In this document: positions 979 to 59,291 of the stretch, one piece after another | Layout: each line of letters starts with the position of its first letter | How positions within the stretch are numbered: position 1 is the first letter of the stretch | From: an uncultured Candidatus Rokubacteria bacterium | GTDB taxonomy: Bacteria; Methylomirabilota; Methylomirabilia; Rokubacteriales; CSP1-6 | Reading direction: 5' to 3' | Assembly: GCA_963747235.1 (NCBI GenBank) | Contig: CAVVEU010000040.1 | Span: 352,001-416,000 of the forward strand | DNA length: 64,000 nt | Notes under the pieces: generated by a model | Database searches by the model: none | Seen by the model: the letters and a program-made list of their open reading frames with translations, nothing else | Told to the model about the DNA's origin: nothing | Translations under genes and position numbers: made by a program

Positions 979-1611
979 ATGAACTGGCTTCGCATGGGGG
1001 CAATGGTGCTGGCGGGCGCGCTGGTGGTCGGGGTGAGCGCGGCGCCCGCCGCGGCGGGGGTGCCCACCGACCAGCTCAAGGGCGCGGTGGAACGGGTCCT
1101 CAAGACCCTGGACGACCCGACGCTCAAGGGTGAGGCGCGGCTGCCCGAGCGGCGGGTGGCCGTCCGCAAGATCGCCAACGAGATCTTCGACTTCAGCGAG
1201 ATCGCCAAGCGATCCATGGCCCGGCACTGGCAGCCGCTCTCCGAAGCCCAGCGGACCGAGTTCGTGGGCCTGTTCGCCGAGCTGCTCGAGCGCTCCTACA
1301 TCTCCAAGATCGAGACGTACGGCGGCGAGAAGATCCAGTACACCGCCGAGCGCGCGGACGGCGAGTTCGCCACCGTGTCCACCCGCATCATCACCAAGAA
1401 CGGCACCGAGGTCCCGGTGGACTACCGCATGATCAAGCGGGCCGACCGCTGGCTCGTCTACGACGTGAGCATCGAGGGCGTCAGCCTCGTGTCGAACTAC
1501 CGGACCCAGTTCAACAAGATCATCCAGACCACGTCCTACAACGAGCTGGTCTCGAAGCTCCGGAACAAGCAGGACGAGCTGCTCGCCGAGGACAAGAAGA
1601 AGAAGCCGTGA
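979..1611 (+). CDS. mlaC: MlaC/Ttg2D (HpnM-like) periplasmic lipid-binding protein
   Basis: Signal peptide; WLVYDVSIEGVSLVSNYRTQF motif; SD GGGAGG upstream. Confidence 0.9.
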   Translation: MNWLRMGAMVLAGALVVGVSAAPAAAGVPTDQLKGAVERVLKTLDDPTLKGEARLPERRVAVRKIANEIFDFSEIAKRSMARHWQPLSEAQRTEFVGLFAELLERSYISKIETYGGEKIQYTAERADGEFATVSTRIITKNGTEVPVDYRMIKRADRWLVYDVSIEGVSLVSNYRTQFNKIIQTTSYNELVSKLRNKQDELLAEDKKKKP

Positions 1612-2789
1612 ACGGCGCCGCGTTCGCGGCGCGGCTGGAAGCGCAGGGCTACGACTTCTTCACCGGCGTGCCCTGCTCGATGATCGCGGGCCTCATCGCC
1701 ACGCTGGAGACGCACCCGCGCCTGCCCTATGTCCCGGCGGTGCGCGAGGACGTGGCGGTGGGGCTGGCCGCGGGGGCCTGGCTGGCCGGGCGGCGGCCGA
1801 TGGTCCTCATGCAGAACTCGGGCCTCGGCACGAGCCTCAACGCGCTGGTCTCGCTGTCGCTCATGTACCGCCTCCCCGCGCTGCTGCTCGTGACCTGGCG
1901 CGGCCACGCGGGCAAGGACGCCCCCGAGCACCTGCTGATGGGCGAGATCTCGCCGAGCCTGCTCGAGATGATCCGCATCCCGCACCGCGTGCTCTCGGCC
2001 AAGACCATCGCGGACGACATCGCGTGGGGCCGAGCCGAGTCGGAGCGCCTGAGCCAGCCCGTCGCCCTTCTGTTACCGCCCGGCATGCTCGAAACGGAAG
2101 AACGCGGGGCAGTGGCAGGGCGAGGTGAAGCCGAAGGCGAGCCGAGCGGATATAAAAATAGAGGGCGCCTGTCAGAAGCGCCATGGACTGACCGCACGCC
2201 CACCGCCCGCATCTCCCGCTTCGAAGCCCTGCGCGCCGCGGTCTCGGCGCTGACGTCCGAGCCGGTGGTCCACGCCAACGGCTACGTCTGCCGCGAGTCG
2301 TTCGCGGTCAAGGACCGGATCGAGAACTTCTACATGATCGGCTCGATGGGCATGGCCTCCGCGATCGGCCTGGGCGTGGCGCTCGCGGCGCCGTCGCGCC
2401 CCACCGTGATCTGGGACGGCGACGGCAACCTGCTCATGAGCCTGGGCATCCTGCCGATGATCGGCGGCGGCCCGGTGATGGGGCGCGGCCGGCCGGCCAA
2501 CCTGACGCACGTGGTGTTCGACAACGCCCTCTACGGCTCCACCGGCAACCAGGCGTCGCCCTCGCGCACGGTCGGCCTCCACCACATCGCGCGGGCCGCC
2601 GGCTACGAGCGCGCCACCGCCGTCGCGGGCGCCGACGAGCTGCACGCCGCCGTCGCCACCGCCGTCGCGGGCGGCGGACCGAGCTTCATCCTGGCGCGCG
2701 TGACCGGAGAGGAGCAGCCGGCGCCCCGCATCCCCTACTCCCCGGAAGAGATCCGCGATCGCTTCCGCTCGTCCCTGGTCAACCGGTGA
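1608..2789 (+). CDS. ThDP-dependent phosphonopyruvate/sulfopyruvate decarboxylase family protein (fused alpha+beta domains)
   Basis: FFTGVPCS, MQNSGLG, FYMIGSMG, DGDG...N ThDP motif, STGNQ; GTGA overlap with mlaC; interdomain linker contains a repeat copy. Confidence 0.85.
   Translation: MNGAAFAARLEAQGYDFFTGVPCSMIAGLIATLETHPRLPYVPAVREDVAVGLAAGAWLAGRRPMVLMQNSGLGTSLNALVSLSLMYRLPALLLVTWRGHAGKDAPEHLLMGEISPSLLEMIRIPHRVLSAKTIADDIAWGRAESERLSQPVALLLPPGMLETEERGAVAGRGEAEGEPSGYKNRGRLSEAPWTDRTPTARISRFEALRAAVSALTSEPVVHANGYVCRESFAVKDRIENFYMIGSMGMASAIGLGVALAAPSRPTVIWDGDGNLLMSLGILPMIGGGPVMGRGRPANLTHVVFDNALYGSTGNQASPSRTVGLHHIARAAGYERATAVAGADELHAAVATAVAGGGPSFILARVTGEEQPAPRIPYSPEEIRDRFRSSLVNR
2109..2154 (+). 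repeat. Intragenic repeat copy 1 (GCAGTnGCnnGGCGAGGyGmAGCCGAAGGCGAGCCGAGCGGATATA)
   Basis: 5 mismatches over 46 bp to the reverse complement of 28166-28211; read as AVAGRGEAEGEPSGY in the decarboxylase linker. Confidence 0.85.
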
Positions 2790-3526
2790 AGGCCATCATC
2801 CTGGTCGCCGGCGTCGCGCGGCGGCTGGCGCCGCTCACCGATTCCACCCACAAGGCCCTGCTGGAGGTGGGCGGCCGCTCCCTGCTCGATCGCATGCTGG
2901 AAGGGCTCGCGGCGTGCGGAGTGGAGGAGTCGGTGCTCGTGGTCGGGCACTGCCAGGACCAGGTGCGCCGCGCCGCGGGCGCGTCGCGCGGCGCCATGCG
3001 GATCAGCTACGTCGAGAACCCGGATTATCAAAAGGGCTCGATCCTGTCCCTGTGGCACGCCCGCGAGGCCATGCTGAACGGCTCCACCCTGATCATGGAC
3101 GCCGACGTGCTCTTCCCGGAGCGCTTCCTGACCCGGCTCATCGCCGCGCCCGCGCCGAGCGCGCTGCTCCTCGACCGCGGCTTCGAGGACACCGGCGAGG
3201 AGGTCAAGCTCTACGCGGTGGGCGATCGGGTCATCGCGCTCGGCAAGAAGTTCGTGCCCGAGGCCTGGGACGTGATCGGCGAGGGCATCGGGTTCTTCAA
3301 GTGCGGCGCGGCCCACGCTCCGGAGTACGTGCGCCTCCTGGAGGAATCCATCCAGGAAACGGGCGGGGCCAACGAGTACGAGGACGCCCTGCACCGGCTC
3401 CTCGCGCGGGTGCCCGTGGGCTGGGTGGACGTCACGGGCCTGCCGTGGACCGAGGTGGACTTCACGGAGGACCTGCGCCGGGCCGAGACGCAGGTCCTCC
3501 CCAAGATCGAGAGTCTCGGGCGCTGA
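2786..3526 (+). CDS. LicC/PntC-like cytidylyltransferase (phosphocholine/phosphonate/inositol-P type NTP transferase)
   Basis: AIILVAG..RRL..T...HKALL, ENPDY..GS..SL, MDADV, EYEDAL, WTEVDFTEDL. Confidence 0.85.
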   Translation: MKAIILVAGVARRLAPLTDSTHKALLEVGGRSLLDRMLEGLAACGVEESVLVVGHCQDQVRRAAGASRGAMRISYVENPDYQKGSILSLWHAREAMLNGSTLIMDADVLFPERFLTRLIAAPAPSALLLDRGFEDTGEEVKLYAVGDRVIALGKKFVPEAWDVIGEGIGFFKCGAAHAPEYVRLLEESIQETGGANEYEDALHRLLARVPVGWVDVTGLPWTEVDFTEDLRRAETQVLPKIESLGR

Positions 3527-3527
3527 T

Positions 3528-4701
3528 GTGGTCCGCGCCCTTCTCTATCTCCCCGACGACGCGGCGCCGGCCCTAGCCGCCGCCGCCGTCTCCGGACGCC
3601 CGCTCGCCGTCCGCGCCATGGTCGCGGCTCTACGCGCCGGCGCCTCCCTGATCGCGGCGCCCTCGACGCTGCGCGACGCGGAGGCCGAGCGCGCGCTGCG
3701 CCGGATGCCCGCGCTGGCCGCCGCGGTGAGCTGGCTCACGCCGGGCGCACCCGCACCCGCGGAGGAGCCCGGCGCGTGGCTGCTCCTCCCCGCCTCCTCG
3801 CTGATCCACGTGAGCGCCCTCGCCGGCCTCTTCGCCGCGCCCGCGCCGCGGGGCGCGGTGCTGGCGCCCTCGGCCGGCGGGCCGGCGCCGGTGGCGCTCG
3901 TCCCCGCGCCGCTCGTCGCCGAGCTCTGGACGGACCTGGCAGCCGGTCGGCCGGTCGGGGCCCTGCTCGCGCGACGGCTCCTGGACGCCGGGGCCCCGGC
4001 CCGCGAGGCGACGGGCCCCCACGTCGCCGTCCGCGAGGCGTCGGACCTGGCCCGCGCGGAAGCAGCGCTCGAGGCCACGCTGGGCATCGCGGTGGATTCC
4101 GGCGTGGACCGATACCTCCACCGGCGCGGCTCGCGCTGGATCAGCCGGCTCCTGGTGCGCACGCCCGGTGGCGCCGAATCACGTGAGCCTCGTGAGCCTG
4201 GCGATCGGCCTGGTCGCCATCTGGTGCTTCTGGCACGCGACCGCCGCGAGCGCCCTGCTGGGCGTGCTGGTCTACGCGCTCGCCTGCATCGTCGACCATG
4301 CCGACGGCGAGATCGCCCGGCTGACGTTCCAGGAGTCGCGCCTGGGGGCCAACCTCGACTGGACGATCGACACGATCATCCACGCGGGCATCGTGTTCGG
4401 CATCGGCGTCAGCTCGGGAGGACGGCTCATGGCCGTGGTCGGGTTCCTGGCCGCGGTCGGGGTGACATTGAGCGCGGTCTTCGCCCGCTACCTCCCCCGG
4501 GAGATCGAGGTCGGTCCCTCCGTGGGCGGCCTGCTCACGCACATCGCCAACCGGGATCTCTTCTACCTCGTGCTGCTCTCCTTCGCGGCCCTGCGATGGC
4601 TGGCGCCGTCGCTCGTCTTCGTGGTGGCGGTGGTCGTCGCGGTGGGCTCGCAGGTCTACTGGGTGGGCTGCCTCGCCCGTATCTGGAGGCCGCGCCCCTA
4701 G
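3528..4701 (+). CDS. CDP-alcohol phosphotransferase with degenerate N-terminal NTP-transferase-like domain (frameshift near 4167)
   Basis: DHADGEIAR..QESRLGANLDWTID signature in ORF 4168-4701; DSGVDRYLHRR..TP-V-APN joins the two frames across one extra base. Confidence 0.8.
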
Positions 4702-5672
4702 TGTCCCGCTGGTTCCGCCCGCTTCTCATCGTCACCGGCCTGGCCCTCGTGGGCTACCTGGTCGCGCAGATCGGCCCTGCCGCGATCTGGTCCTCGTTCG
4801 TCACGCTCGGCTGGCGCCTGCCGATCGTGCTCGCCTTCCCGTACGCGCTGGCCGCGGCGGTGGACACGCTGGCCTGGCGGCTCCTCCTGCCCACGCCGGT
4901 GCCCTTTCTCCTCCTCCTGCGCGCGCGTCTTGCCGGGGAGGCGGTGAGCCTGGCCACGCCCACGATGTCGGTGGGCGGCGATCCGCTCAAGGCCTACCTG
5001 CTGCGGCCGCGGCTCCCCCTGCTCGACGGCTTCGTCTCGGTGATCGCGGACAAGACCACCGTGGTGGCCGGCCAGGTGATCTTCCTCGCCCTGGGGCTCC
5101 TGGCCGCGACGTCTATGGCGGCGCCTCCGGAGGGCCGGCTCCTGCCGGTGATGGCCGGGCTGCTGGTGGTGGAGGTGCTCGCGGTCGGCGGCTTCGCGCT
5201 GGTGCAGGCCAGCGGCGCGCTGGGCGGCGGCGGGCGCCTGCTCGGCCGGCTCGCCAAGCGCGTGGGCGTGGGCGGCGCCGAACGCTTCGAGCAGGGCCTG
5301 GACGACCTGGACCGGGCGCTGGCCGGGCTCTATCGCCACCGGTGGCGGCGCCTCGTCGCCTCCGCGATCGTCCACGCGGTGGCCTGGGCCACCGGCGGCC
5401 TCGAGATCTACCTGGTGCTGAGCCTGCTGGGGACGCCGGCGCCGCTCGGCATCGCCCTGATCGTCGAGTCCTTCGCGAGCGGCGTGAAGTTCGCCAGCTT
5501 CATGGTGCCCGCCTCGCTCGGGGTGCTCGAGGGCGGCTACGTGGTCTTCTTCGAGGCCTTCGGCCTGGGGGCCACCGCCGGCCTCTCCTACGTGCTGGTG
5601 CGGCGGCTCCGCGAGATCACGTGGGCCGTCGTGGGGTTCCTCGCCCTGGGCGCCGAGCGCCCACCGGCCTAG
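4701..5672 (+). CDS. Lysylphosphatidylglycerol synthase TM/flippase-like (YbhN/HpnL-like) membrane protein
   Basis: Multi-TM; RLAGEAV..TP..SVGGDPLKAYLL, PASLGVLEGG, LVRRLRE; GTG overlaps previous TAG. Confidence 0.8.
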   Translation: MSRWFRPLLIVTGLALVGYLVAQIGPAAIWSSFVTLGWRLPIVLAFPYALAAAVDTLAWRLLLPTPVPFLLLLRARLAGEAVSLATPTMSVGGDPLKAYLLRPRLPLLDGFVSVIADKTTVVAGQVIFLALGLLAATSMAAPPEGRLLPVMAGLLVVEVLAVGGFALVQASGALGGGGRLLGRLAKRVGVGGAERFEQGLDDLDRALAGLYRHRWRRLVASAIVHAVAWATGGLEIYLVLSLLGTPAPLGIALIVESFASGVKFASFMVPASLGVLEGGYVVFFEAFGLGATAGLSYVLVRRLREITWAVVGFLALGAERPPA

Positions 5673-5762
5673 GTCTGCGGCCGGCCCTCGGGGCGTGTGC
5701 TAGACTCTGTGGGTCTGACGCGTCGCCGCATGTCGCGGTGACGAAGCGCTGAGGAGGCGGCC

Positions 5763-6836
5763 GTGGGATCTGTTCGCGTTGCGGTGGTCGGTGTCGGTAA
5801 CTGCGCATCCGCCCTCGTCCAGGGTGTCCACTACTACAAGGGTGCGCCCGACGACGGCTTCATCCCTGGTCTCATGCGTCCCCGGCTGGGCGGCTATCAC
5901 GTCGGGGATATCGAGTTCGTGGCCGCCTTCGACATCGACGCCAACAAGGTGGGCCTGGACCTGGGCGAGGCCATCGGGGTCAAGCCCAACAACACCGTCC
6001 GCTTCGCGGAGGTCCCCCGCCTGGGGGTGCCGGTGCAGCGGGGCATGACCCACGACGGGCTCGGGCACTACCTGTCCCAGATCATCACCAAGGCCCCCGG
6101 CAGCACCGCCGACATCAAGAGCATCCTGCGGGAGACCCGCACCGACGTGGTGGTCAACTTTCTGCCGGTGGGCAGCGAGATGGCCACCAAGTGGTACGTC
6201 GAGCAGGTGCTCGACGCGGGCTGCGGCTTCGTCAACTGCATCCCGGTGTTCATCGCCCGGGAGGAGTACTGGCGCCGCCGCTTCGAGGATCGCGGGCTGC
6301 CGGTGGTGGGCGACGACGTGAAGTCGCAGGTGGGCGCCACCATCATCCACCGCATCCTGACCAAGCTCTTCATGGACCGCGGGGTGCGGCTCGAGCGGAC
6401 CAGCCAGCTCAACGTGGGCGGCAACACCGACTTCTACAACATGCTGGAGCGCCAGCGGCTGCACTCCAAGAAGATCTCCAAGACGGACGCGGTCCGCTCC
6501 CAGCTCGCCCACGACATGGCCGACGACAACATCCACATCGGCCCGAGCGACTACGTGCCGTGGCTCGAGGACCGGAAGTGGGCGCACATCCGCCTGGAGG
6601 GCCGCAGCTTCGGGGACCAGCCCATCAACGTCGAGCTGAAGCTCGAGGTGTGGGACTCGCCCAACTCGGCGGGCGTGGTCATCGACGCGATCCGCTCCTG
6701 CAAGATCGCGATGGACCGCGGGATCAAGGGCGCCCTGCTCGCGCCCTCCGCCTACCTGATGAAGTCTCCGCCCGAGCAGTGGTCGGACGAGGTGGCGCAC
6801 ACGCGCCTGGAAACGTTCATCAACGGCGCCGAGTAA
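5763..6836 (+). CDS. ino1: myo-inositol-1-phosphate synthase
   Basis: [43 protein letters not shown]; SD GAGGAGG. Confidence 0.95.
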
Positions 6837-6860
6837 CCGCGCCGTCGTCGGTTCCGCTTC

Positions 6861-9606
6861 ATGATCGCGATTTCCCGGACCGGCCGCGTTCTCCGCCGGC
6901 TGGTTCGGCTGTCCTGCCGCCGGCCCGCCGTCACGGTGGCGATCTCCCTCCTGCTCGCCGCCGCCGCGATCGCCTACACCACCCACGCGCTGACCTTCAA
7001 GACCTCCACCCGCGCCCTGCTGCCCCAGGACGCGGGCTACGTGGTGCGCTACGCGGAGTACGCCAAGGAGTTCGGCGAGCTCGAGGACATCGTGGTGGTG
7101 GTGGAGGCCGGCTCCTTCGAGGGCGCGCGCGCCTACGCGGCGCGCCTCACCGAGGAGCTCCGGCAGGCGCCGGTCAAGTTCCAGCGGGTCGCCTACCGGA
7201 TCGACCCCAAGCGGTTCGAGGGCCGCCAGCTCCTCTACCTGACGACCCCCGAGCTGCGCGAGATCCGCGACAAGATCTTCGACCACCAGGAGTTCATGGA
7301 GAGCTTCGCGGGCGACCCGAGCCTGGCCCGCCTGCTCGAGGGCGTGAACACCCAGATGGCGGCCGCCTTCGTCTCCAACCTCTTCGACATCGGGCTCCAG
7401 GACAAGGACCTGCCGGTGGACACGCGCTTCCTGCGCGTGCTCCTGGACCAGATGGCGAGCCGCCTGGAGCGGCCCGCGCCCTACCGCTCGCCCTGGGGCA
7501 CGCTCTTCTCCTTCGGCGAGGACCCGCCCGACGACGCCGGCTACTTCCTCTCCGAGGACAAGAGCCTGCTCTTCATCCTGGTGGAGACCCCGCCCAGCGA
7601 GAAGGGCAGCTTCATGGGCGACCAGGCCGCCATCGAGACGATTCGCGAGGCGGTCGCCAAGCTGCGGCCCGCCTTCCCGAACGTGCAGGCCGGCGTGACC
7701 GGCGCGCCCGCGCTGTCCAACGACGAGATGACGGCGGCCTTCCACGACAGCAGCATCTCGGACGTGCTGGCCTTCGCCCTCACGCTGCTGGTCATGACCC
7801 TGGCCTTCATGCGGGTGGGCAAGCCGGTGCTCATGCTGGGCGTGCTCGCGGTGACGCTGGCCTGGTCCATGGGCGTGGTCACCCTCACGGTGGGACACCT
7901 CACCCTCTTCTCGGTGATGTTCATCTCCATCGTGGTCGGCATCGGCATCGACTACGGCATCTACTATCTCTTCCGCTACGAGGAGGAGATCTTCCTGGGC
8001 CGGAACCTCCGCGAAGCCCTCGAGCACACCGCGGCGCGCACCGGCCCCGGCATGCTGGCGGGCGCGCTGACCGCGGCCGGGACGTTCTTCGTGCTGATGC
8101 TCACCGATTTCCGGGGCATCCAGGAGCTGGGCTTCATCGCGGGCATCGCGATCCTGATCGCCTGGGTCGGGATGATGACGCTCTTCCCCGCGATCCTGGT
8201 GTTCGTGGACAGCCACCACGCGGACCGCCCGCGGGGGCAGCGGCCCCGCGCGCACCAGCTCGAGCGCATCCGCGTGCCGCTCCTGGACCGCCTGGTCACC
8301 TACCCCCGCACCGTCCTGATCGGCGGCGGGCCTCCTCACCGCGTTCTCGATCTGGGCGGTGCCCCGCGTGGGCTTCGACTACAACGTGCTCAACCTGCAG
8401 GCCAAGGGCACCGAGTCGGTGGCGTGGGAGCGCCGCATCCTCGCGAGCACCGGCCGCTCCGGCTTCAACGCCTTGTCCTCCGCCTCGTCTCTCGAAGAGC
8501 TGCGCGCCAAGCAGGCCGCCTTCGAGAAGCTGCCGTCGGTCTCCGACACCGATTCGGTCCTGCGCGTGATCCCGGACGATCAGGCCGAGAAGATCGCCCT
8601 GATCAAGAGCTTCGGCCCCCTGGTGGCCCCGATCCGCGTCGGCCGCTCGAGCCCGGTGGATCTCGACCGCCTCAAGCAGGCGCTCGCCGACATCAAGCGG
8701 CGCTTCGACGTGGTCGCGGTCGAGGCGGGGGCCAAGCTGCCCGCCGAGATCCGGGTGGTCCGCGACAAGACCATCGCGGTGCAGCGCCTGCTCGCGCGCA
8801 GCAACCGCGACTCGGCGGAGGCGGCGCTGAACTACCTGCAGGCCCAGCTCTACCGGGACTTCGTGAACAAGTTCTACAGCCTCCAGCGCAACCTCAAGCC
8901 CACCTCCGTGACCATCAAGGACGTGCCGGAAGAGCTCCAGCGCAAGTTCATCGGCGAGAACGGCCGCTTCCTCATCCAGATCCATCCCAAGGTGGACATC
9001 TGGGAGAAGGCGGGCGCGGCCCAGTTCGTGCGGGACCTGCGCACGGTGGATCCCGACGTCACCGGCCCGCCCATCATCACCTACGAGGCCACGGTGCTGA
9101 TGGAGCGCGCCTACCTCACCGGGAGCCTCTACGCCTTCGTCCTCGTCGGCGGCCTCAGCATTCTCATGATCCGGCGCATGCGCGAGAGCCTGCTCGGGCT
9201 CGTGCCGATGGTGCTGGGCGTCCTCTGGACCGTGGGCCTGATGCAGGTCTTCGGCATCAAGTTCAACCTGGCCAATATCTGGGGCCTGCCGCTCATCATC
9301 GGCACCGCGGCCGAGTTCGGCCTCAACGTGATCCTGAGCCACCTGGAGGGCCGCGCCCACGGCGGCCCGCTCGTCGCCCGCAGCGCGGTGCTGGGCGTCG
9401 CGCTGAACGGCATCACCACCATGGTGGGCTTCGGCAGCCTCATGATCGCCACCCACCAGGGCATCTTCAGCCTGGGCCTGCTGCTGACCCTGGGCTCGGC
9501 CTGCGGGCTCGTGGCCGCGCTGATCGTCCTGCCGGTGGTGCTCAAGCTGCTGATGAAGCCGGTGGAGCAGCAGGCCGCGCCGATCGAGAAGCCGTCGGCC
9601 GCGTAA
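6861..9606 (+). CDS. MMPL/RND lipid exporter, HpnN-like (frameshift near 8330)
   Basis: Two RND halves, GIGIDYGI in the first TM set; ORFs 6861- and 8359-9606 join by removing one base. Confidence 0.85.
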
Positions 9607-9734: not shown

Positions 9735-11443
9735 CTACAGCGCGTCGGGGCCGGTGGCGATGCGGTCGAGGTCGGCGCGCGTGTAGGAGCCGAGGCTGCG
9801 GTAGTCGAGGTCCACGTAGTTCTTGATCCAGCGCTGGGCGATCTTCACCGCCTTGCGGTAGCGCTCCTCGGTCTGGGCGTCGCGGGTCTTCATCAGGCGC
9901 AGGATGTCGTCGCACTCCTCCTGGAGGAGGCGCTTCACCAGCGCCGCGTCGTGGGTCGCCGCGGGGCCTTGAGTGGTCTTCACCGCGATGCCGGATGCGC
10001 TGCGCGATCTGGGCGACCGACATGCGCCCGGTGGCCAGGTCCTCCATCAGGGCCGGGTGCACGCCGGGCTTGCCCGCGAGGCTGTCGATGCCCTTGGCGC
10101 CGCGGCCCTGCAGCCAGCCCTCGACGTACTCGATCGACCATGCGGGCGTTGCGGCGCGTGCCCTCGAGCGTGATCGGGCCCGCCGGCACCTCGATGCGCA
10201 CCGGGTAGCTCTCGGGCTTCAGCCATCTCGGGCCTGGGCTTCCAGGTGCCGCTGCCGTGCACCCGCTTGAAGGGCTCGGCCGCGGTCTTCATGTGGAAGA
10301 TGTGGGCCACCCAGGCGCGGATGAAGCCCTGCTCGGCCTCCCACACCTTGTCGGCCTTGATGGACTCCGCGGCCACCCGGTTCACCTCCGGGTCGGGGTT
10401 GGGCAGGGCGGTGGCCATGCCGCCGATGGGGACGGCGCCGTGCTTGAGGCAGACCGCGACCAGCCGGCGGAAGATGTTCGAGAGGAACGGCGTGGTCTTG
10501 ATGTCCACCCCGAAGCGGTCCGGCCACACCGAGTTGGGATCGGCCATCACGAACTCGAAGATGCTCGCCTTGAGGTCCCAGCGGGCCGCGTTGAGCCCGG
10601 CCGCGTACGGGCCCGAGCGCGTGGAGCATCTCCTCCATCTCGTAGACCGCGGGCAGCGCCTCGACGAGGGGGATCGCGCGGATCGTCGCGTCCTTCAGAA
10701 ACGGCAGGAGCGCGCGGCTCCGGTCGAAGACGTCGCGGTACCAGGCGCACTCCTCGGCCCCGTCCACCTTGGGCAGGTAGAAGTAGATGCCCTGCCCGCG
10801 GCTGGCCTGGGCGCGGCCCGGGTAGTAGAGCGTCAGCGCGGTGCCGAGGATCGCGGCGGAGACCGGCCGGCCGTCCACCGTGACCTCGGGCTCGTCGAGA
10901 TGCAGGCCGCGCTCGCGGTGCATGAAGAACGGCAGCTCGCCGGGCGCGATGCGGTACTCCCGGTTCCGCTCGCGGTCCACGTACTGCAGCTCGTGGTTCA
11001 CCGCGGCGAGCCGGTTGTGGCAGGCGCGCACCGTGTCGATCAGGCGATGCCCGGCCGAGTCCTCGTCGTCGTCGAGGTCGCCCTCGGCGCGCTCGCCCTC
11101 CGGCCCCGGGTTGAGCGCGTTGATGAACATGCTGGTGATCGAGCACGGGCCCGAGATCTCGATGCCGGGGGTGGCCAGGTCCTTCGGCACCGGCGGCACC
11201 TTCCAGTCGGACGTGGTGGCCGCGCTCGGCGGGCAGCGGCTCGGGCAGCCGGCCCTGCTTGAGCGCGCGCACGAGGCGCTCGTCCCGCTTGGCCCGCAGC
11301 GCGTGCGCGCGCGGGGTGAACTCGTCGCACAGGCGGACGAGGTAGTCGCGGAACTCGGGGGTGAAGAGGGCGGCGGCGCCCTCCACCGGGGCGACCTGCA
11401 CCCGGTCGGCCGCGTTGCGAGAGGCTCCTGGATTCGCCGGCAT
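9735..11443 (-). CDS. Malate synthase (several frameshifts)
   Basis: PPVPKDL..PGIEISGP, FINALN, YFYLPK, GLNAARWD, GAVPIGGMAT, DKVWEAEQGF..WVAH across frames. Confidence 0.8.
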
Positions 11444-11463
11444 TGGCGTGGCTCCGTTCGGTA

Positions 11464-12240
11464 TCAGGATTCGGCCTGGACGCGGGCCTGGAGGTCGCGC
11501 GCGCGGCCGCGGCCTCGCAGGAGCGCGCGGATCCCGAAGTAGGCGAAGGCGTCCTTGAGGTTGGAGTACAGCCGCTGGAGCGCGCCCCATCTCCTGGCTG
11601 GTCACGTACTCCATCGTGTACACGACGCGGCGCTCGCCCTCCCCGAGACGGGCTCACCCCGTGGTAGACCTTGTCGCCGTTGAAGATGACCAGCGAGCCG
11701 GGCTCGGTGGCCACCGCGAGCTCGAGCGGGGCGCGGCCGGCGGTTCGCGTGTGCAGCCGGCACTGGAGCCGGCTCGCGGAGTCCTGCACGAGCCCGACGA
11801 GCACGGTGTAGCGCGCGCCCCGGTAGTAGGACGTGTCGTAGTGATAGCCCATGTGATCGCCGGGCTCGGTGTAGAAGTAGAGCGCGCAGGCGTGGGGATC
11901 CTCGTCCGGGCAGAGCTTGAGGTCGGCCCGCACCAGCCCGCCGAGGAACCGGCGGAACCGCTCGGAGCGGTAGAAGGCGAGCAGCGCCGGCCCCTCGTCG
12001 GCGATCGCGTAGTGGCTGACGCTGCCGCCCTTCTTGTGGCGCGGGATGTAGTTGCGGTTGAGCCCGGGCTCGAGGCGGCGCACGTCGTCGAGGAGCGCGC
12101 CGACCGCGACCGGCGGCAGGAACCGCGGGATGAACAGGAACTCGTCCTGCGCCCAGTACTCGCGCTCGAGCGCGGGCACGTCGAGGCGGTCGAGCGCCGC
12201 GTCGATCTCGGCCGCGAACGCGCGCGTCGCGGGCGATCAT
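11464..12240 (-). CDS. 2OG-Fe(II) oxygenase family protein (frameshifts near both ends)
   Basis: HYD...H facial triad (GYHYDTS; NGDKVYHGVSP) followed by a conserved Arg. Confidence 0.75.
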
Positions 12241-14293
12241 CCGAGGCGCTCCACCTGCACCAGGTTGGAGTGCAGCGCCGGCCCGCCGCCCATGTCCGCG
12301 GTGCGGTCGTCGGTGAGCGCGTTGACCCCGCGCCCGCCCGGCTGGTGCTTGTTCCACCAGATCCCCTCCACCACCGCCACCCCCTCGCGCGTGTCGTCGG
12401 TCAGCTCGGCGGTGAACCGCGCCTCGCCGCGTGCGCTCCGCACCAGCACCGCGTCGCCGGTCTGGATGCCGCGGGCCGCGCCGTCGGCCGGATGCAGCAG
12501 CACCGCGGGCCCGCGCTGGCGCCGGCGCATGAGCTCGGACTGGCTGAACGAGGAGTTCAGGAAGAAGCGGTTGGGCGGCACGATGCACTGCAGCGGATAG
12601 CGCCGCGTGAGCTCGGCGTGCTCCGGCCCCTCCACCAGCGGCGTGTAGGTGGGCAGCGCGGGCAGGCCCGCCCGGGCCAGCGTCTCCGAGAGGAACTCGA
12701 CCTTGCCGGACGGCGTGGGCGCCCCGTTGGCGAAGGGCAGGTACGGCCGGCCGATGCGGAGTCGCACCGAGTGCTCCGCCTCGAGCCGCTCCAGCGTGAT
12801 GCCCTCGATCGAGGGATCGCCCGAGGCGAGCGCCTCGCGGATGAGATCGTCCTCGCTCTTGCTGAAGTGCGGGTCGCGCAGCCCCATCGCCGGCGCGAGC
12901 AGCCGGGTCACGGCCCAGTTCGAGCGCGCCTCCCCCTCCGGCGCGATGACCGGGCGGGCGAGCTGCACGTAGAAGTGGCCGTAGGACTTGTAGCAGTCGG
13001 TGTGCTCCATGGACGTGGTGGCCGGGAGCACCAGGTCGGCGTAGTCGGTGGTGTCGGTGAGGTGCTGCTCGTGCACCACCGTGAAGAGGTCCTCACGCGC
13101 GAGGCCCCTGGAGCACCAGCTCCTGGTTGGGCACGATCGAGGCCGGGTTGGCGTTGTAGACGTAGAGCGCCTTGACCGGCGGCGTCAGGTCCGGATCGGT
13201 GAGCGCGCGCCCGAGCTGGATCATGTTGATCACCCGCGGCGCCGGCTGCGGGGATCAGGTCCGGCCGCTCGACCACCGCGTTCGAGAGGCCGAACGCGCC
13301 GCTGGACGCCAGCAGGGCGCCGCCCGCGGGATGCGCGTAGGCCCCGGTCAGCGCGGGCAGGCACGCGATGGTCCGGCACGTCATGCCGCCGTTGTCGTGG
13401 CGGGAGAGCCCGATCCCGACGCGGATGAACGCGGCGCGCGTGGCCCCGTAGCGGTGGGCGAAGGCCACGATGTCCGAGACGGTGAGCCCGGTGATCGCGG
13501 CCACGCGCTCGGGATCGTACTGCTTGACGTGCTGGGCCAGCGCCGTGAAGCCGAGCGTGGCGCGCTGGATGTAGTCCTGGTCCACGCGCCCCTCGCCGAT
13601 GAGCACGTGCATGACGCCCAGGGCCAGGGCCCCGTCCGTTCCCGGCCGCGGCATGAGATGCCAGTCGGCCTGGCGCGCGGTCGGGGTCCGGTAGGGATCC
13701 ACGCAGACCACGAAGGCGCCGCGCCGGCGCGCCTGCTTCACCAGCGTCATCGCGTTGATGTGGGTGTGGGAGGCGTTGATGCCCCAGAGCACGATCAGGT
13801 CCGACTCCGCCATCTGCTCGGAGTCGTTGCCGGTCACGGTGCCGAGCGTGCCCTGCCAGCCCGCATAGGCGGTGCTGACGCAGATGGTGCGGTCGAGCCG
13901 CGACGCGCCGAGCGCGTAGAAGAGCGCATGGCCCGCCCGGTTCTGCACGAGGCCGAGCGTGCCGCCGTAGGAGAACGGCAGGATGGCCTCGGCGCCCCAC
14001 TGGGCGATCACGCGCCGCCAGCGGTGGGCGATCTCGTCCACCGCCTCGTCCCAGCCGATCGGCTCGAAGCGTCCCTCGCCCTTGGGCCCGACGCGTCGAA
14101 GGGGCGTCAGCACCCGTGTCGGGCCGTAGACGCGCTCGGCGTAGTCGTGGACCTTGCCGCAGATCACGCCCCGTGTGAAGGGATGCCGGGCATCGCCGAC
14201 GACGTCGGTGATGCGCCCCGCCTCCACCGTGACCTGGAGCGCGCACTGCGACGGGCAGTCGTGCGGACAGACGGACGGCAACGTGGCTCGCAT
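12237..14293 (-). CDS. Molybdopterin (bis-MGD) oxidoreductase, single subunit (frameshifts near 13100-13250)
   Basis: CPHDCPSQC...C Fe-S motif, TICVST, ADLVLPATT, FLNSSF, C-terminal molybdopterin-binding domain. Confidence 0.88.
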
Positions 14294-14317
14294 CGAGACG
14301 CTAGATTATCATGGGCC

Positions 14318-15577
14318 ATGCGCGAGCACCCCTTCCAGAGCCTCGAGGCCCGCCGGCTCGCGCTGCTCTTCGCGATCGTCTACTTCGCCCAGGGCATGAT
14401 CTACCTGCCCGACCAGGTCGTCTCGATCGTGTTCAAGGAGCGCGGCCTCACCGCCGGCCAGCTCGCCGCGTTCACCTGGATCACCACGATCCCGTGGTTC
14501 ATCAAGCCGGTCTACGGCCTGCTGTCGGACTTCGTGCCGCTGTTCGGCACCCGGCGGCGGAGCTACTTCCTGATCATGTCCGCGATGGCCGCGCTGGCCG
14601 CGGTCGCCCTGAGCCTGATGCCCGGCGCGTCCTACGCCCAGCTCGCCGCCATGATCACCCTGCTCTGGCTGGGGGTGGGCTTCACCGACGTCCTGACCGA
14701 CGCGCTCATGGTGGAGAACGGCAAGCGGGTGGGGCTGACCGGCGCGTTCCAGTCCGTGCAGTGGGGCGCGCTGAGCGCGGCCTCGATCCTGGTCGGGGTG
14801 GGCGGCGGCTACCTCGCCGAGCGCCGCGCCTTCGCGGCCGCATTCGCGCTGGTGGCCTGCTTCCCCGTCGTCTCGTTCCTGATGGCCCTCCTCGTGGTGC
14901 GGGAGCCACCCGCGCGCCCGACCCTCGAGGGCTTCGGCGAGACCTGGAGCGCGGTCCGCGCGGCGCTCACGCGGCGCGACCTGTGGGCGGTGGCGGGCTT
15001 CACGTTCTTCTGGGCGTTCAGCCCGTCGTTCGGGCCCGCGTTCTTCTACTACCAGACCGACGTCCTCGGCTTCTCGCAGACGTTCATCGGCGTGCTCTCG
15101 TCGCTGGGGGCCGCCGCGAGCATCGCGGGCGCCTGGGCCTACGCGCGCCTGTCGCGGGCCTACTCGCTGAAGCGCCTGATCGTCTGGTCGATCGGCGCCG
15201 GCGTGGTGGGCACGCTCGCCTATCTCGTCTACCGGGGCCCGGTGTCGGGGATCATCATCACGGTGGTCTTCGGCGCGATCGGCATGACCACCCAGCTCGC
15301 GTTCCTGGACCTGGCCGCCAAGGCCTGCCCGCGTCGCGCGGAGGCCACCTTCTTCGCGCTCCTGATGTCGGTCTACAACCTCGGGATGCGCAGCGCGGAG
15401 TGGACCGGCGCGAACCTGTACGACTGGGTGGGCTACGCGCCGCTGGTGCTGATCTCGACCGCGTTCACCGCGGCCGCGTGGCTCCTGGTGCCGCTCGTGC
15501 CCATCGACGCCATCCAGGCCGCGGCTCAGGAATCCACGCGCTCCTCCCGCTCCACCGCCTCCTTGGCCGACTCGTAG
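14318..15577 (+). CDS. MFS transporter, BT1 folate/biopterin family
   Basis: YFAQG, PWFIKPVYGLLSD..P.FG.RRRSY, DVLTDALMVE, EATFFALLMS. Confidence 0.85.
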   Translation: MREHPFQSLEARRLALLFAIVYFAQGMIYLPDQVVSIVFKERGLTAGQLAAFTWITTIPWFIKPVYGLLSDFVPLFGTRRRSYFLIMSAMAALAAVALSLMPGASYAQLAAMITLLWLGVGFTDVLTDALMVENGKRVGLTGAFQSVQWGALSAASILVGVGGGYLAERRAFAAAFALVACFPVVSFLMALLVVREPPARPTLEGFGETWSAVRAALTRRDLWAVAGFTFFWAFSPSFGPAFFYYQTDVLGFSQTFIGVLSSLGAAASIAGAWAYARLSRAYSLKRLIVWSIGAGVVGTLAYLVYRGPVSGIIITVVFGAIGMTTQLAFLDLAAKACPRRAEATFFALLMSVYNLGMRSAEWTGANLYDWVGYAPLVLISTAFTAAAWLLVPLVPIDAIQAAAQESTRSSRSTASLADS

Positions 15578-15936
15578 GAGCGCCGCAGCCAGCGGATGGC
15601 GCGCCCGGTGTCGCGCGGGTCCTCCACGCGGCACTCGACCCAGCCCATCGCGCTCATGCGCCGGTGGGGCGAGCAGCCCGCCGCGAGCGCGCGCCGCTGG
15701 TCCTCGGGCGTGAGGCGGATCCAGAGATCGCTGTCCTTGGCGCGCAGCGGGAAGCAGGCGAACAGGCGGGGGCCGACGAAGTAGCCCCAGCGCCCGAACA
15801 TCGGGGTGATCCGCACCCGGGGCCACTTGCCGAGCGTCTGGTTCAGCTCGGCGGCCGGCCCGGTCCCGCCGCGCTCGAGCGTCCGGCGAGTCTTCCGCGC
15901 GGAGCCGAGGCCGCGGAACGGCCGGCGGGGATCCAC
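15526..15936 (-). CDS. TfoX-like / luciferase-like small protein
   Basis: PMFGRWGYFVG..LFA and W.RRSYE pattern in C-terminal part of ORF 15526-16650; GTG start inferred. Confidence 0.55.
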   Translation of the reverse strand: MDPRRPFRGLGSARKTRRTLERGGTGPAAELNQTLGKWPRVRITPMFGRWGYFVGPRLFACFPLRAKDSDLWIRLTPEDQRRALAAGCSPHRRMSAMGWVECRVEDPRDTGRAIRWLRRSYESAKEAVEREERVDS

Positions 15937-15938
15937 CG

Positions 15939-16717
15939 CTAGCTCAGGGGATTCGTGGGGCCGAGCGCGGTGAGCCCGCCGTCCACGATCGTGGTGTAGC
16001 CGGTCACGGCCCCGTTGGCGAGCAGGAACACCACCGCCTCCGCGACCTCGTCCACCGTCGCGGGTCGGCCGATCGGCGTGAGGCTCCCGATCTGGTCGAG
16101 CAGGTCTCGCGTGATGAGGCCGCCGCCGAAGCCGGTGGCGAGCACGCCCGGGGCCACCGCGTTGACCCGGATGCGCGAGGGCGCCAGCGCGCGGGCCAGC
16201 GATTTCGTCAGCGCGTCGAGGCCGGCCTTGGACGCCGCGTAGGCCATGGACGAGCCGGTGCCGGTGAACGTCGCCACCGAGGTGATGTTGACGATGGCGC
16301 CCGCCGCCCCGCCGCTCCATGTGGGGCACCGCGGCGCGCACGCAGTAGAAGGCGCCGCGCAGGTTGGTGGCCAGGGCGCGGTCCCAGATCTCGTCGGTGA
16401 GGTCCTCGAATCGGCGGTGTGGCACGCGCTGCGTCCAGCCCGCGTTGTTCACCAGGCAGTCGAGGCCGCCCAGCTCGCGCGCGACCAGGTCGGCCATCGC
16501 CCGCACCTCGGCATCGCGCGTGATGTCGGCCTGGACCGGCAGGGCCCGGACGCCGGCCTCCTCGGCGAGCTTGGCCGTCTCGTCGGCCGCCGCCTTCGAC
16601 CTGGAGTAGTTGACCGCCACCGCGGCGCCTTCGCGGGCCAGCGCCAGCACCGTCGCGCGCCCGATGCCGGTGGCGCCCCCGGTGACCAGCGCGACCTTGC
16701 CGGCCAGCCTCGCGATC
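15939..16717 (-). CDS. Short-chain dehydrogenase/reductase (frameshift near 16300; start uncertain)
   Basis: TGGATGIG, NNAG, YAASK, VNAVAPG, DGG. Confidence 0.85.
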
Positions 16718-32338: not shown

Positions 32339-35300
32339 TCAGTCGACCTCCCCGCCGATGCCGAACTCCACGCGCCCGCCCGCCGACGGCGACGCGGCGC
32401 CCGCCGCCGCCGCGCTCGGCGCGTCCGCGGGCGCGGGGGTCGCGGCGGCCGCGGGCGCGGCCAGCGCCTGCACCCGCGCCTCCGGAATGCCCTCCACCTT
32501 GGTGAGCCGCTCGCGGGTCACGTCGAGCCGGCGCTGGCGCAGCTCGGCGAGCGGGCCGGTCGGCTCCGGCTCGCGCTTGCGCAGCAGCACGAGCTGCTCC
32601 TCCACCGACATCGGGAGCTGGGCGTCCTTGACGATGACCTGGTAGTAGCGCCGCAGCGCGGCCGCCTGGTCCGCGATCCCCTGCTCCTGCTGGAACTTCT
32701 GCAGGCGCGCCGCCACCGCGCGCTCCTTGAGCGTCTCGACGTCGGCGGGCGAGGTCACCGAGGCCAGGGTCAGGCTCACGTAGGGCGAGCGGCGGAGGAA
32801 GTCGCCGACCCGGACGGTCTGGCGCTCCAGCTCCGGGCTCAGCACCGCGCTGCCCGCCGCGAAGACCACCGGATCCACCTTGATCTCGTCGATCTTGTCG
32901 CCGCTCGGTGAAGAGGCCGCCGATGGCCCGGAAGGGCGCCTTCAGGATGTTGACGATGACGTTCCGGACCGCGGTCCAGATCGCGTCGCTGAAGTCGAAC
33001 TGCTTGTCGGTGAGGGTGCCGGTGATGGGCACGTTGACGTGGATGTTGCCGTCGCCGTCCTTGAGCAGGGCCACGACCAGCCCCAGCGGCAGGCCGATCC
33101 GCTTCTTGACCTCGTCGGATTCCTTGGCGGGCGCGACCCGCAGGTTGCCGACCAGGATGTCGTTCTTGGCGTCGAGCTTGTCCTGCTCGATCTTGTACTC
33201 GAGCTTGGTGGTCAGCTCGCCGCGCCGGATGATCCAGCCGATCATGCCCTCCACGTAGGGATTGGCGGCGGGCAGGGCCAGCTTCTTCAGCTCGCCCACC
33301 ATGTCCACGTAGGTGGGCGCGCCGATCGCGGACAGGTCGCCGCGGAGGTCCAGCGCCGAGTCGCCGCCGATGAGCGCCTGCACGAGCAGGTTGGCCCGCT
33401 GGCTCTTCTTGTTGGAGAGGTCCTTGACCGTCACGGTCAGCTTGGAGATGTCCTGGGAGAACGGCGGCTGGGTCGTGCGGTCGAGGAACCGCACGTACCC
33501 GTCCTCGACCACGATCTCCTTGAAGTAGAGCTCCATCGTCTCCAGCAGCCCCGGCGACTTGGCAGTCGCGCTGGAAGTCGAAGCGGCAGGAGGCGCGGCA
33601 GTTGCCTGGGGAGGCGCAGCCGAAGGCGAGCCGACCGGATTCGAGACCATGAAGAGCTTCTGCACGTTGATGCCGTCGGGCCCGCGGTCCAGCTCGGCCA
33701 CCGGGGCCTTCAGGCGCACCTTCGCCACGCGCGCGTGGGTCGGCCAGCCGAAGTCGATGCCGGTGATCTCCATCCGCTCGAGCCGCAGCGGGGCCTCCTT
33801 GCCGTCGGGGGTCTTCACGGCCAGGTCGGTGGCCCAGCTATTGCCGCGAGAGAGCGCGGTCAGCTTGCCGTTGGTGATGCGCACCCGGTTCTGGCTGTCC
33901 GAGTTGAACCGGCCCGAGAAGCTCGCCGGAAACGGAAAGTACGCGCGATACGGCTCGATCGGCGCGTTGCGGGTGGTGAGCGTCAGGGTCAGGTCGAGCG
34001 GCTCGATCTTCACCGCCCCCTTCGCGTTGACCTTCCCTCCACCGGGCAGGTCCACCGCGACCGCGAGCTTCATGGGCCGGATGTTCGGCCAGGTCACGTC
34101 GTCGACCTGCACGCCGAGGTTGCTCAGCTTCAGCACCGTGGGCGGCGTCGATATCGCCTCGTCGGTGAACGTCGCTCCGCCCTTCAGCGTGACCTTCTCG
34201 ACCGTGATCTTGAACTCCGGCTCGGCCTTGGCCGGAGCGGGCGAGCGGGTGGACCGGGAGCGGGGGCCGCCGGCTTCGCGGGACGCCGCCTGCGAGCCGC
34301 CGCGCGGCTTCCGGCTTCTTGGTCAGCTCGAGCAAATCGATCTGCTCCTGCTTGTCGCGCACCGCCTTGAGGTCGAGCCCTTCGATGTCCACGCTCGAGA
34401 TCGTGACGACGCGGGACACCAGGTTGACCTCCTTGAGCCCCACCGCGATGCGCGGCACGGTGAGGAACGGGACCGGCTTCCCGGGCTGGGCCAGCGCCAG
34501 GCTGGTCAGCGTCAGGTCGCCCGTGATGAGACCGACCGCGAGCCCACCCTTCCCCAGCTCGAGCTTGAGCGCCATGGTGATGCCCGCGATGCCCGACTCC
34601 AGCGAAGCCGGCAGCGTGGGCGGAAGATAGGGTCGCACCTGCAGCAGGCTGAAGTTCTGGATGGAGAACTTCCCACCGAAGGAGGTCGGGGTCAGGTCGA
34701 TGTCCTGGGCCGAGAACTCGACCGGCGAGTTGTTGAGCGCGCCGTGCACCGCCAGCTTGCCGACCGGCCCCGACGGCTTCGTCGTGAGATTGCCGGCCTC
34801 GATCGAGAGGTCCTGCACCTTCCACTCGCTCACCGGCGTGACCGCGCGATCGGTGCCGGTGAGATTGGCCCGGATCAGGGCGAACCGCTCGATCCCGATC
34901 GTCCAGCGCGACTTGGCCGGGGGCTCGGTGGGCGGCGGCGGCGGCGGCCCCGCGGTGGTGGCGAGCCGGGCCAGGATGTCGGAGAAGTTGAACACGGTCG
35001 GGCTCACGCGCACCAGCTTCACGGTGGGGGCGGTGAGCACCAGCTCCGCGACCCGGATGTGGCCGAAGATCGACGACCACGGGACGACGCGCACGTCCAG
35101 CCGCTCGAACTCGACGAAGGCCTGGGCCGGGTCCGGCTCGGCGAGCCGGAACTTCTTGATCGCCACCCGCCCGGTGAACAGGTTGATGTCGATGTCCTCG
35201 ATGGCGACGACCCGCCCGGTGATCGCGGGGATCTGCTTGAGCGCCTGCCACTTCACGATCTCGGGCAGCGTCCAGATGAAGGCGATGCCCACCACCAGCA

Positions 35301-35352: not shown

Positions 35353-35358
35353 GGCCGC

Positions 35359-39774: not shown

Positions 39775-39823
39775 GTCGGTCTCCTACCTGTCGGGTGAAC
39801 GGCGTGGCGCTATAGTACCGCAC

Positions 39824-53335: not shown

Positions 53336-53337
53336 CT

Positions 53338-59256: not shown

Positions 59257-59291
59257 GCCACGCTCATCGCCCGGGGCTGGGCCTCGAGCCC

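Follow-up and report, generated by a model that had tools for sequence, protein, structure and literature searches.

The Group 1 phosphonolipid (Burkholderiales_CDP-OH) core comprises Ppm::PntC, Ppd, a 2-aminoethylphosphonate (AEP) transaminase (AEPT), a 2-oxoglutarate (2OG) oxygenase, a second PntC and two phospholipid genes (Li & Horsman 2022, PMC8942020, citing Yu et al. 2013). Its predicted product is a phosphonolipid, and in the accessible portions of that survey no lipid is characterised. Judged by analogy of gene content, this family is the closest described system to the locus analysed here: an operon in a 64,000-nucleotide stretch of DNA (the window; contig C40, positions 352001-416000) from the metagenome-assembled genome (MAG) of an uncultured soil bacterium of the Rokubacteria, designated G000 (5.57 Mb, 42 contigs, ~71% G+C, 88% complete). 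The operon joins lipid-transport genes and ino1 to genes for a decarboxylase, a nucleotidyltransferase (NTase) and a CDP-alcohol phosphotransferase, which in relatives from the Methylomirabilota form part of a larger cassette. Like Group 1, the relatives' cassette has a mutase fused to a PntC-type NTase, a Ppd-like gene, a second NTase and a phospholipid-type gene. However, the relatives' mutase carries EDNx5CS instead of EDKx5NS, the Methylomirabilota cassette includes neither an AEP transaminase nor a 2OG oxygenase, and its setting is an Mla/HpnL/HpnN/ino1 operon adjoining hopanoid genes. The window itself lacks the Ppm fusion, AEPT and the oxygenase; it has a Ppd-like gene, one PntC-like gene, a CDP-alcohol phosphotransferase and an HpnL-like gene.

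Other known systems match parts of the locus. With the PntC pathway, as set out in the accessible portions of Rice et al. 2019 (PMC6697681), it shares a PF12804 NTase whose best structural match is Tde-PntC (6pd1) with Glu196 kept, and, in relatives, the fusion of Ppm to an NTase; the window NTase differs in its low identity (55.5 bits), in having Asp for Glu104 as in LicC, and in that its substrate is a prediction. The transferase resembles AF2299 and IPCT-DIPPS of Archaeoglobus fulgidus (4o6m, 4mnd), which also combine an N-terminal NTase-fold domain with a six-helix CDP-alcohol phosphotransferase carrying DGx2ARx8Gx3Dx3D, but identity is 14-20% and the window enzyme partners phosphonate-type genes, not only ino1. 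Finally, HpnM (MlaC-like), HpnN and HpnL have been proposed as hopanoid-trafficking factors in proteobacteria (2025 preprint, 10.1101/2025.07.29.667474, PMC12324291). The window's MlaC-like, resistance-nodulation-division (RND) and HpnL-family genes likewise adjoin hopanoid biosynthesis genes, yet all score under the TIGRFAM cut-offs, belong to another phylum and are joined to a full MlaFED, ino1 and a head-group cassette. Neither "inositol" nor "phosphon" occurs in the accessible text of that preprint, and our literature search returned no paper joining hopanoids with phosphonopyruvate decarboxylase and none linking inositol to hopanoids.

Results

The region under study makes up the 3' two-thirds of a single operon, mlaE-mlaF-mlaD-(MlaC/HpnM-like)-[decarboxylase-NTase-transferase]-(HpnL-like)-ino1-(HpnN-like RND). 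Our preferred explanation, which we hold to be moderately probable, is that a fixed hopanoid/Mla/ino1 core here carries a three-gene remnant of a phosphonate-type head-group cassette. mlaE lies directly before mlaF on the contig, outside the window (PF02405, 259.5 bits; L094). The mlaF-like ABC ATPase gene begins upstream and its 3' part occupies positions 1-498 (PF00005, with a partial match to NF008809 MlaF), followed by mlaD at 512-952 (TIGR04430, 141.2 bits; cut-off 135) and the gene for an MlaC/HpnM-like periplasmic lipid carrier at 979-1611 (PF05494, 168.5 bits; HpnM TIGR03481, 95.3 bits against a cut-off of 160.1). The three cassette genes come next: a Ppd-like fused alpha-beta thiamine pyrophosphate (TPP) decarboxylase of the phosphonopyruvate/sulfopyruvate decarboxylase family at 1608-2789, a PntC/LicC-like nucleotidyl (cytidylyl) transferase (NTase1, here simply the NTase) at 2786-3526 (PF12804, 54 bits) and an AF2299/IPCT-DIPPS-type CDP-alcohol phosphotransferase (the transferase) at 3528-4701 (PF01066, 43.4 bits on 4171-4701; cut-off 22). 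The transferase gene encodes an NTase-like domain at its N-terminal end (3528-4166) and, beyond a one-base insertion, a membrane CDP-alcohol phosphotransferase domain (4168-4701); its TAG stop is overlapped by the GTG start of the gene for an HpnL-like, flippase-like membrane protein (LPG_synthase_TM; 4701-5672; PF03706, 87.5 bits). The latter reaches 155.4 bits with HpnL TIGR03476, under the cut-off of 195.65, and 50.8 bits with TIGR00374, over the cut-off of 43.2. The operon closes with ino1, encoding myo-inositol-3-phosphate synthase, at 5763-6836 (PF01658, 123.3 bits against a cut-off of 27; TIGR03450, 524.2, under 638) and an HpnN-like RND (MMPL/HAE3) lipid exporter gene at 6861-9606, whose N half covers HpnN positions 2-443; the intact orthologue at L045 scores 576.1 bits with TIGR03480 over positions 15-857 of 862 (cut-off 751.85). 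The genes listed in the initial annotation of the window are all present and tightly packed on the + strand, with start and stop codons that overlap or abut as described there.

The core of the operon, mlaEFDC, hpnL, ino1 and hpnN, is fixed in Methylomirabilota. We fetched 18-kb regions from 20 decarboxylase-positive genomes; ten have the mla-linked operon, with identical gene order in all ten, and the same order was found in three further close relatives. Synteny, proposed as a check in the initial annotation, is thus conserved in every Methylomirabilota locus with enough flanking sequence. In G000 the operon is divergent from hpnH-hpnG-hpnA-hpnD: beyond mlaE, the opposite strand carries a CruF-like PF04240 gene, hpnH, hpnG, hpnA, hpnD, two zinc-dependent alcohol dehydrogenase genes, pagL and ispH. 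HpnH (543.3 bits), HpnA (389.1) and HpnD (324.6) all exceed their cut-offs, and HpnG (115.9) falls under its own. This divergent block is kept in all eight relatives for which upstream DNA was fetched and recurs in the Methylomirabilota-type loci of a public genome scan, so that the suggested tie between the Mla and HpnL/M/N-like genes and hopanoids is borne out by their constant position beside hopanoid genes. shc, which the annotation had advised looking for, is present in G000 at two loci. By tblastn, the operon carries the sole mlaE, the sole ino1 and the sole HpnN-like pump found in G000, together with the one strong mlaD (the second match is merely 30% identical); at least six further MlaC-like paralogues lie beyond the operon copy. 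The operon's mla genes are the only Mla system found in the genome. We infer that the core transports hopanoids, phospholipids or both from the inner membrane to the outer, with a linked supply of inositol phosphate.

By contrast with this fixed core, the segment between mlaC and hpnL is accessory: it is the site of a cassette of four genes, of which G000 has those for the decarboxylase, NTase and transferase. Among 201 genomes of the phylum, 113 (five of them unpublished) have a decarboxylase match at E <= 1e-40, including 92 of 125 in the same family. In six of the ten mla-linked loci (G186, G114, G194, G050, G057 and G099) a gene of 555 aa lies between mlaC and the decarboxylase gene; G136 resembles G000 in having none. 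Five partial forms of the cassette are present within one genus: complete in G114 and G186; without the fusion encoded by the 555-aa gene in G000 and G213; without fusion and transferase in G082; reduced to the decarboxylase in G019; and reduced to NTase and transferase, with no decarboxylase, in G106 and G070. Of the ten loci, that of G032 likewise has the decarboxylase alone. G106 keeps a deletion scar in which ~60 nt of the decarboxylase 5' end are left between mlaC and the NTase gene (L224, G106:C19, 6557-6625). This accessory cassette is being lost piecemeal. We estimated ratios of nonsynonymous to synonymous substitution rates (dN/dS) by the Nei-Gojobori method; extreme G+C content at third codon positions compresses dS, leaving the ratios rough but clearly <1. 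For the decarboxylase, dN/dS is 0.17 between G000 and G213, 0.17 between the fusion-bearing G114 and G186, and 0.21-0.28 in other pairs. The corresponding values in fusion-less pairs and in G114/G186 are 0.24-0.35 and 0.14 for the NTase, 0.24-0.51 and 0.34 for the transferase, and 0.06-0.12 and 0.09 for Ino1. These ratios indicate that the surviving cassette genes are under purifying selection.

The gene missing from G000 would be the first of the pathway. The relatives' 555-aa protein is a PEP_mutase domain (PF13714, 197.6 bits) fused to NTP_transf_3 (PF12804), encoded precisely between mlaC and the decarboxylase gene; in relatives, the phosphonate logic proposed in the initial annotation therefore holds. 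In G000 itself, the recommended search for pepM found no source of phosphonopyruvate. The EDKx5NS motif is absent from all six frames of the genome, the best TIGR02320 (PepM) match in this 88%-complete MAG reaches 149.8 bits against a cut-off of 319.55, and tblastn with a relative's fusion recovered neither of the two fusion classes described below, only genes of the isocitrate lyase/methylisocitrate lyase (ICL/MICL) type and EDQ..K(K/R)CGH-type paralogues. The DUF4340/MBL/DUF502 context on C24, which elsewhere accommodates canonical PepM, holds neither PepM nor Ppd in G000. The window was correctly described as lacking pepM and an AEP transaminase gene, the best PEP-mutase-family and PhnW matches lying elsewhere on the contig. 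The annotation had named two findings that would speak against its proposal, the lack of any source of phosphono- or sulfopyruvate and the lack of conserved linkage: no such source was found in G000, but the linkage is conserved.

The relatives' fusion aligns end to end with PepM of Mytilus edulis (1m1b, E 5.6e-72) and Streptomyces (5unc, 4e-84), and differs from these enzymes in its active-site motif, in scoring below the TIGR02320 cut-off and in falling outside the canonical clade. Its loop reads EDN(V/I/L)FPK(K/T/R)CSLYPG. Among 24 loci of the phylum that show the motif, 23 have EDNx5CS and one has EDNx5SS. In a HMMER alignment to the Mytilus enzyme, the changes are K to N, T to K and N to C, at positions that we take to be K116, T121 and N122 of PepM, while FPK and the final S are kept. 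A second fusion class, 37-42% identical to the first, has the canonical EDKLFPKTNSF and passes the TIGR02320 cut-off with 372.2 bits. It occurs in other contexts, adjoining decarboxylases that are 55-62% (same family) or ~40% identical to that of the window. None of the 201 genomes contains both fusion classes (27 versus 26 genomes, hand tally), which is weak evidence that the two are equivalent, because the sampled genomes are related.

We queried 1.84 billion cluster representatives with the mutase-like domain. In the loop of the best 150 matches, 95 have EDK..NS, 22 EDN..CS, two EDS..CS and 11 EDN..NS, and the EDN..CS and EDS..CS sequences are the top matches. In a FastTree phylogeny rooted on the ICL-type paralogues of G000, the canonical sequences group as a single clade of 105 tips (support 0.976) that arises within a grade of N..CS and N..NS sequences; backbone supports are low (0.24-0.9), and the sample was picked by likeness to the EDNx5CS variant. 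Two published surveys, as described in their accessible portions, filter on EDKx5NS (Rice et al. 2019, PMC6697681; Li & Horsman 2022, PMC8942020), and the EDNx5CS branch would therefore be invisible to their inventories; the former sets aside 22 of 905 fused PF13714 proteins without the motif as non-Ppm.

The cassette also extends beyond the Methylomirabilota. Scanning one genome per species, we obtained 80 loci with the variant, a set whose motif counts are biased by scan patterns that contained EDN, so that the motif is partly there by construction. Hosts include Methylomirabilota, Sorangium (including So ce56), Minicystis, Byssovorax and other Polyangiaceae, Nitrospirota, Acidobacteriota, Planctomycetota, Binatia, Chlamydiae, Omnitrophota and others, and in at least six other phyla the cassette has no ino1 or hpnH nearby. 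At 40 loci outside the Methylomirabilota, each with 5 kb or more of upstream and 6 kb or more of downstream sequence, we counted features within 10 kb. The mutase-like gene is fused to an NTase domain at all 40, a second NTase accompanies it at 36, a Ppd-like decarboxylase, often split, at 26 and an hpnA-like gene at four; ino1 and hpnH were found at 0/40 each. tblastn detected a CDP-alcohol phosphotransferase at 4/40 loci and missed the Sorangium gene that Pfam detects; since tblastn is this insensitive, the count is no evidence of absence. The So ce56 cluster consists of the fusion, TPP-alpha, TPP-beta, an NTase and a CDP-alcohol phosphotransferase. A Nitrospiria cluster, close to hpnA/CruF-like genes, also has a CDP-alcohol phosphotransferase and, in addition, an AepZ-like aminotransferase (346 bits against 360.8). 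Six genomes were checked, three of which are complete: So ce56, Minicystis rosea, a Binatia chromosome, and Polyangiaceae, Nitrospiria and Blastocatellia MAGs. In all six, TIGR02320 has the variant as its sole strong match. This gene context argues, short of proof, that the variant mutase-like enzyme feeds a phosphonate pathway.

Three public contigs (L104, L112 and L113) carry a Methylomirabilota-type operon at 85-94% identity although their records assign them to Verrucomicrobiia and Nitrosocosmicus MAGs, probably through errors of binning.

We next turn to the enzymes that would activate and transfer the head group, which bear on an inositol pathway as an alternative to the phosphonate-type remnant. 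Under such a scheme the NTase would be an inositol-1-phosphate cytidylyltransferase (IPCT), the transferase would draw on the Ino1 product for the synthesis of an inositol phospholipid or a di-myo-inositol phosphate (DIP)-like solute, and the decarboxylase would be a passenger. ino1 lies inside the operon as the single copy found in G000, and the top NCBIfam match of the NTase is IPCT/DIPPS (NF041135). However, this match reaches 77.3 bits against a cut-off of 580, and against solved structures the NTase aligns best with Tde-PntC (6pd1; E 5e-14, end to end, 55.5 bits), then LicC (8.6e-10) and then IPCT (2.4e-7). The comparison suggested by the initial annotation thus places the NTase nearer to PntC and LicC than to IPCT. 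According to the accessible portions of Rice et al. 2019 (PMC6697681), Glu104 and Glu196 of Tde-PntC contact the AEP amine. In the window NTase, Glu196 is kept as Glu199, within EYEDAL, and Glu104 corresponds to Asp105. These residues favour a small, amine-bearing phosph(on)ate over an inositol phosphate as the predicted substrate.

The transferase contains the CDP-alcohol phosphotransferase motif D-x2-DG-x2-AR-x8-G-x3-D-x3-D (DHADGEIARLTFQESRLGANLDWTID, frame-1 translation). It scores 34.3-55.3 bits with NF041135 (cut-off 580), and its NCBIfam matches to AIP synthase (53.9 bits against 180), DIPPS (34.3) and PIP synthase (31.1) are likewise far below the cut-offs. We modelled the intact L045 orthologue from G114 using an 8-sequence alignment (pLDDT 85.1, pTM 0.77). 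In Foldseek comparisons the fold matches AF2299 (4o6m) with a TM score of 0.72 over the whole length and IPCT-DIPPS (4mnd) with 0.59, as an inositol enzyme would. The N domain of the model matches NTase folds weakly; a G-x-G-x-R loop marks active NTases, and in the N domain of the window transferase we found neither that loop nor a Pfam match. The distribution of the genes speaks against the inositol scheme: in other phyla the NTase and transferase accompany the mutase-like gene, with ino1 at none of the 40 loci, and in G019 and G032 ino1 stays where NTase and transferase are lost. We consider an inositol-only pathway unlikely. The initial annotation had proposed that Mla, hopanoid, inositol and phosphonate modules are mixed in one pathway; the modules and their linkage are real, but ino1 belongs with the transport core and not, as had been assumed, with the head-group cassette.

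A second alternative is that the cassette is a dead remnant in this strain, with real frameshifts making pseudogenes of the transferase and exporter. Both genes do switch frame in the assembled sequence, a feature absent from the initial annotation. The transferase gene switches at ~4167, where an additional G in CCCGGT (4167/4168) separates ...LLVRTP (frame 0, to 4166) from VAPNHVSL... (frame 1, from 4168). The RND gene switches at ~8331, with an additional C in GGGCCT (8331/8332) between ...VLIGGG (to 8330) and LLTAFSIW... (from 8332). The 714-aa and 957-aa open reading frames (ORFs) of a plain ORF list were rejected as chimeric read-through across these switches. The decay of the cassette within the genus, with its deletion scar in G106, and the absence of the committed first gene from G000 also fit a dead remnant. 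However, at least six unrelated window genes outside the operon are broken in the same way, their Pfam/NCBIfam models running on in a different frame: the only malate synthase-like gene (9.9-11.2 kb), a molybdopterin oxidoreductase (12.2-14.3 kb), a short-chain dehydrogenase/reductase (SDR; 15.9-16.7 kb), a DUF748/AsmA-like gene (32.9-35.4 kb), a halogenase-like gene (54.5-55.8 kb) and hpnJ (48816-50172, - strand; TIGR03471, 540.3 and 193.3 bits in two frames). The last, ~40 kb downstream and outside the operon, had been correctly placed within the window by the initial annotation. Judged from these frame-broken stretches (9738-16677, 32883-35358, 48816-50172 and 54525-55804), the assembly carries ~1 indel per 6-7 kb, a load that affects both ORF lists and completeness estimates for the G000 MAG.

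In relatives, the transferase and RND genes are single ORFs, as are the malate synthase and molybdopterin oxidoreductase orthologues at L045 (G114). In G213, the closest relative found (decarboxylase 92% and Ino1 98% identical to G000), both halves of the transferase and of the RND gene share one frame, leaving both genes intact. Both single-base insertions sit where a run of G meets a run of C, the RND pump and Mla genes are single-copy core genes, and the dN/dS of the cassette genes is clearly <1. Because the window is rich in indels, we conclude that both operon frame switches are very probably assembly errors, and a functionless cassette seems to us rather improbable, slightly more so than the inositol scheme. 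On the preferred reading, the three surviving genes are intact save for one probable assembly error.

The decarboxylase has PF02776 (38.6 bits) and PF02775 (44.2 bits) domains, with TIGR03297 (Ppd) as its top family; it scores 120.3 bits with ComD (cut-off 147.95) and 160.4 with ComE (221.5). A sulfopyruvate decarboxylase making sulfoacetaldehyde for a sulfonolipid or taurine-type head group, an option kept in the initial annotation, would accord with these matches, with the four further ComDE-like pairs in G000 and with the retention of the gene in the absence of PepM, seen in about half of the positive genomes of the phylum, but is very improbable given that both scores are below cut-off with Ppd the best family, that no sulfopyruvate source is evident in the genome (no ComA match; best cysteate synthase match 79.8 bits against 324.9), that the partner NTases would, by enzyme family, require a phosphorus-containing substrate and that the 55-62% identical paralogues adjoin canonical EDKx5NS PepM. 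The ComDE-like pairs are split ComD/ComE-like TPP decarboxylase genes at C35:1931-2892, C33:189909-190870, C40:256814-257808 and C11:6104-7023.

The AEP transaminase that the initial annotation had proposed to seek exists in G000, in a catabolic setting: the sole PhnW (463 bits) is encoded beside PhnA (473.7) at C40:227546-232328 (L202), 124 kb upstream. Beside this pair is a gene for an MshA-like D-inositol-3-phosphate glycosyltransferase (298 bits, under the cut-off), an enzyme that would take the Ino1 product.

Directly beside hpnJ lies serA, encoding 3-phosphoglycerate dehydrogenase (47231-48703, - strand). The enzyme makes 3-phosphohydroxypyruvate, which corresponds to phosphonopyruvate as its phosphate-ester analogue and is, speculatively, an alternative substrate of the decarboxylase.

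Elsewhere in the window, a UGSC-family gene (39247-39783, - strand; PF24696, two halves at 1.7e-17 each) is interrupted by an in-frame TGA (39487-39489) that coincides with the U of U-G-S-C, and is likely to encode a selenoprotein. The end of the window (52646-64000, - strand) is a lipid or aryl-polyene-like block with a MacB/LolCDE-type ABC transporter, the frameshifted FAD halogenase-like gene, a family 2 glycosyltransferase, several ketosynthases, an acyl carrier protein, an LpxL-type acyltransferase and a FabG-like SDR.

Discussion

In the full cassette of the relatives, the mutase-like domain would turn phosphoenolpyruvate (PEP) into phosphonopyruvate and the decarboxylase would convert this to phosphonoacetaldehyde. 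After amination or reduction by an enzyme outside the cassette, the NTase would yield a CMP-activated phosphonate, which the CDP-alcohol transferase would hand to a membrane alcohol: diacylglycerol, a hopanoid polyol or an inositol phosphate. The HpnL-like protein could then flip the lipid product, and the RND pump and Mla/MlaC-like proteins could export it. The position of the cassette beside hopanoid synthesis genes suggests that such a head-group lipid would share the hopanoid export route.

Several of our findings weigh against a phosphonate-type cassette. The relatives' fusion reaches 291.8 bits with TIGR02320, below the cut-off of 319.55, and fails the EDKx5NS motif as well as this family test. 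Its mutase-like domain branches between ICL-type lyases and canonical PepM and retains the lyase cysteine. Because it fails the PepM tests, branches in a grade and keeps this cysteine, the enzyme may not be a phosphonopyruvate maker. The wider distribution is affected by the motif bias of the scan noted above. The decarboxylase scores 287 bits with TIGR03297, below the cut-off of 312.5, compared with 315 for the PepM-adjacent paralogue at L054, and 57 of the 113 positive genomes of the phylum have it without a PepM-type gene better than the ICL-type level (hand tally; 53 of 108 after leaving out the five unpublished genomes). Several of these mutase-less genomes are 98-100% complete. Loss of the fusion with retention of the decarboxylase also occurs in the DUF502/MBL/AurF context (L059 compared with L056) and in the Ysc84 context (L062 compared with L060). 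This pattern argues that the decarboxylase has a PepM-independent role. The best NCBIfam families of the transferase all take inositol-1-phosphate as acceptor, which fits the inositol scheme. PhnW, considered as the missing AEP-forming step, was rejected since it sits with PhnA and so belongs to AEP catabolism. In a MAG that is 88% complete, a relocated mutase gene is conceivable in the missing part, and every step of the mechanism is read from genes, not biochemistry.

On the phosphonate-type reading, de novo formation of a carbon-phosphorus (C-P) bond would be impossible in G000 with any gene found, and the cassette copy of the window is probably dependent on salvage. Most likely the three survivors remain active with a salvaged or alternative substrate; for the NTase and transferase this would be a small phosph(on)ate that bears an amine, such as AEP or phosphoethanolamine. 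The significance of this particular copy is modest, a shortened cassette in an indel-rich MAG. The main interest lies in the variant mutase clade and in the mutase-less decarboxylase. In the textbook view, Ppd exists only to pull the unfavourable PepM reaction; a decarboxylase kept without a mutase in about half of the positive genomes breaks this rule.

More tentatively, these elements could be joined. The EDNx5CS clade would then represent a class of enzymes, so far overlooked, that stands between ICL-type lyases and PepM and retains the lyase cysteine. Its product would be decarboxylated, CMP-activated and placed on a hopanoid polyol or inositol phosphate, and the decarboxylase would have a second, PepM-independent substrate tied to the hopanoid/inositol core. 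We regard this combination as unlikely. If it were true, Rokubacteria, Nitrospirota and others would make an undescribed phosphono- (or otherwise modified) hopanoid/inositol lipid of the outer membrane. If the EDNx5CS enzyme makes C-P bonds, the phosphonolipid capacity of major soil phyla would be underestimated.

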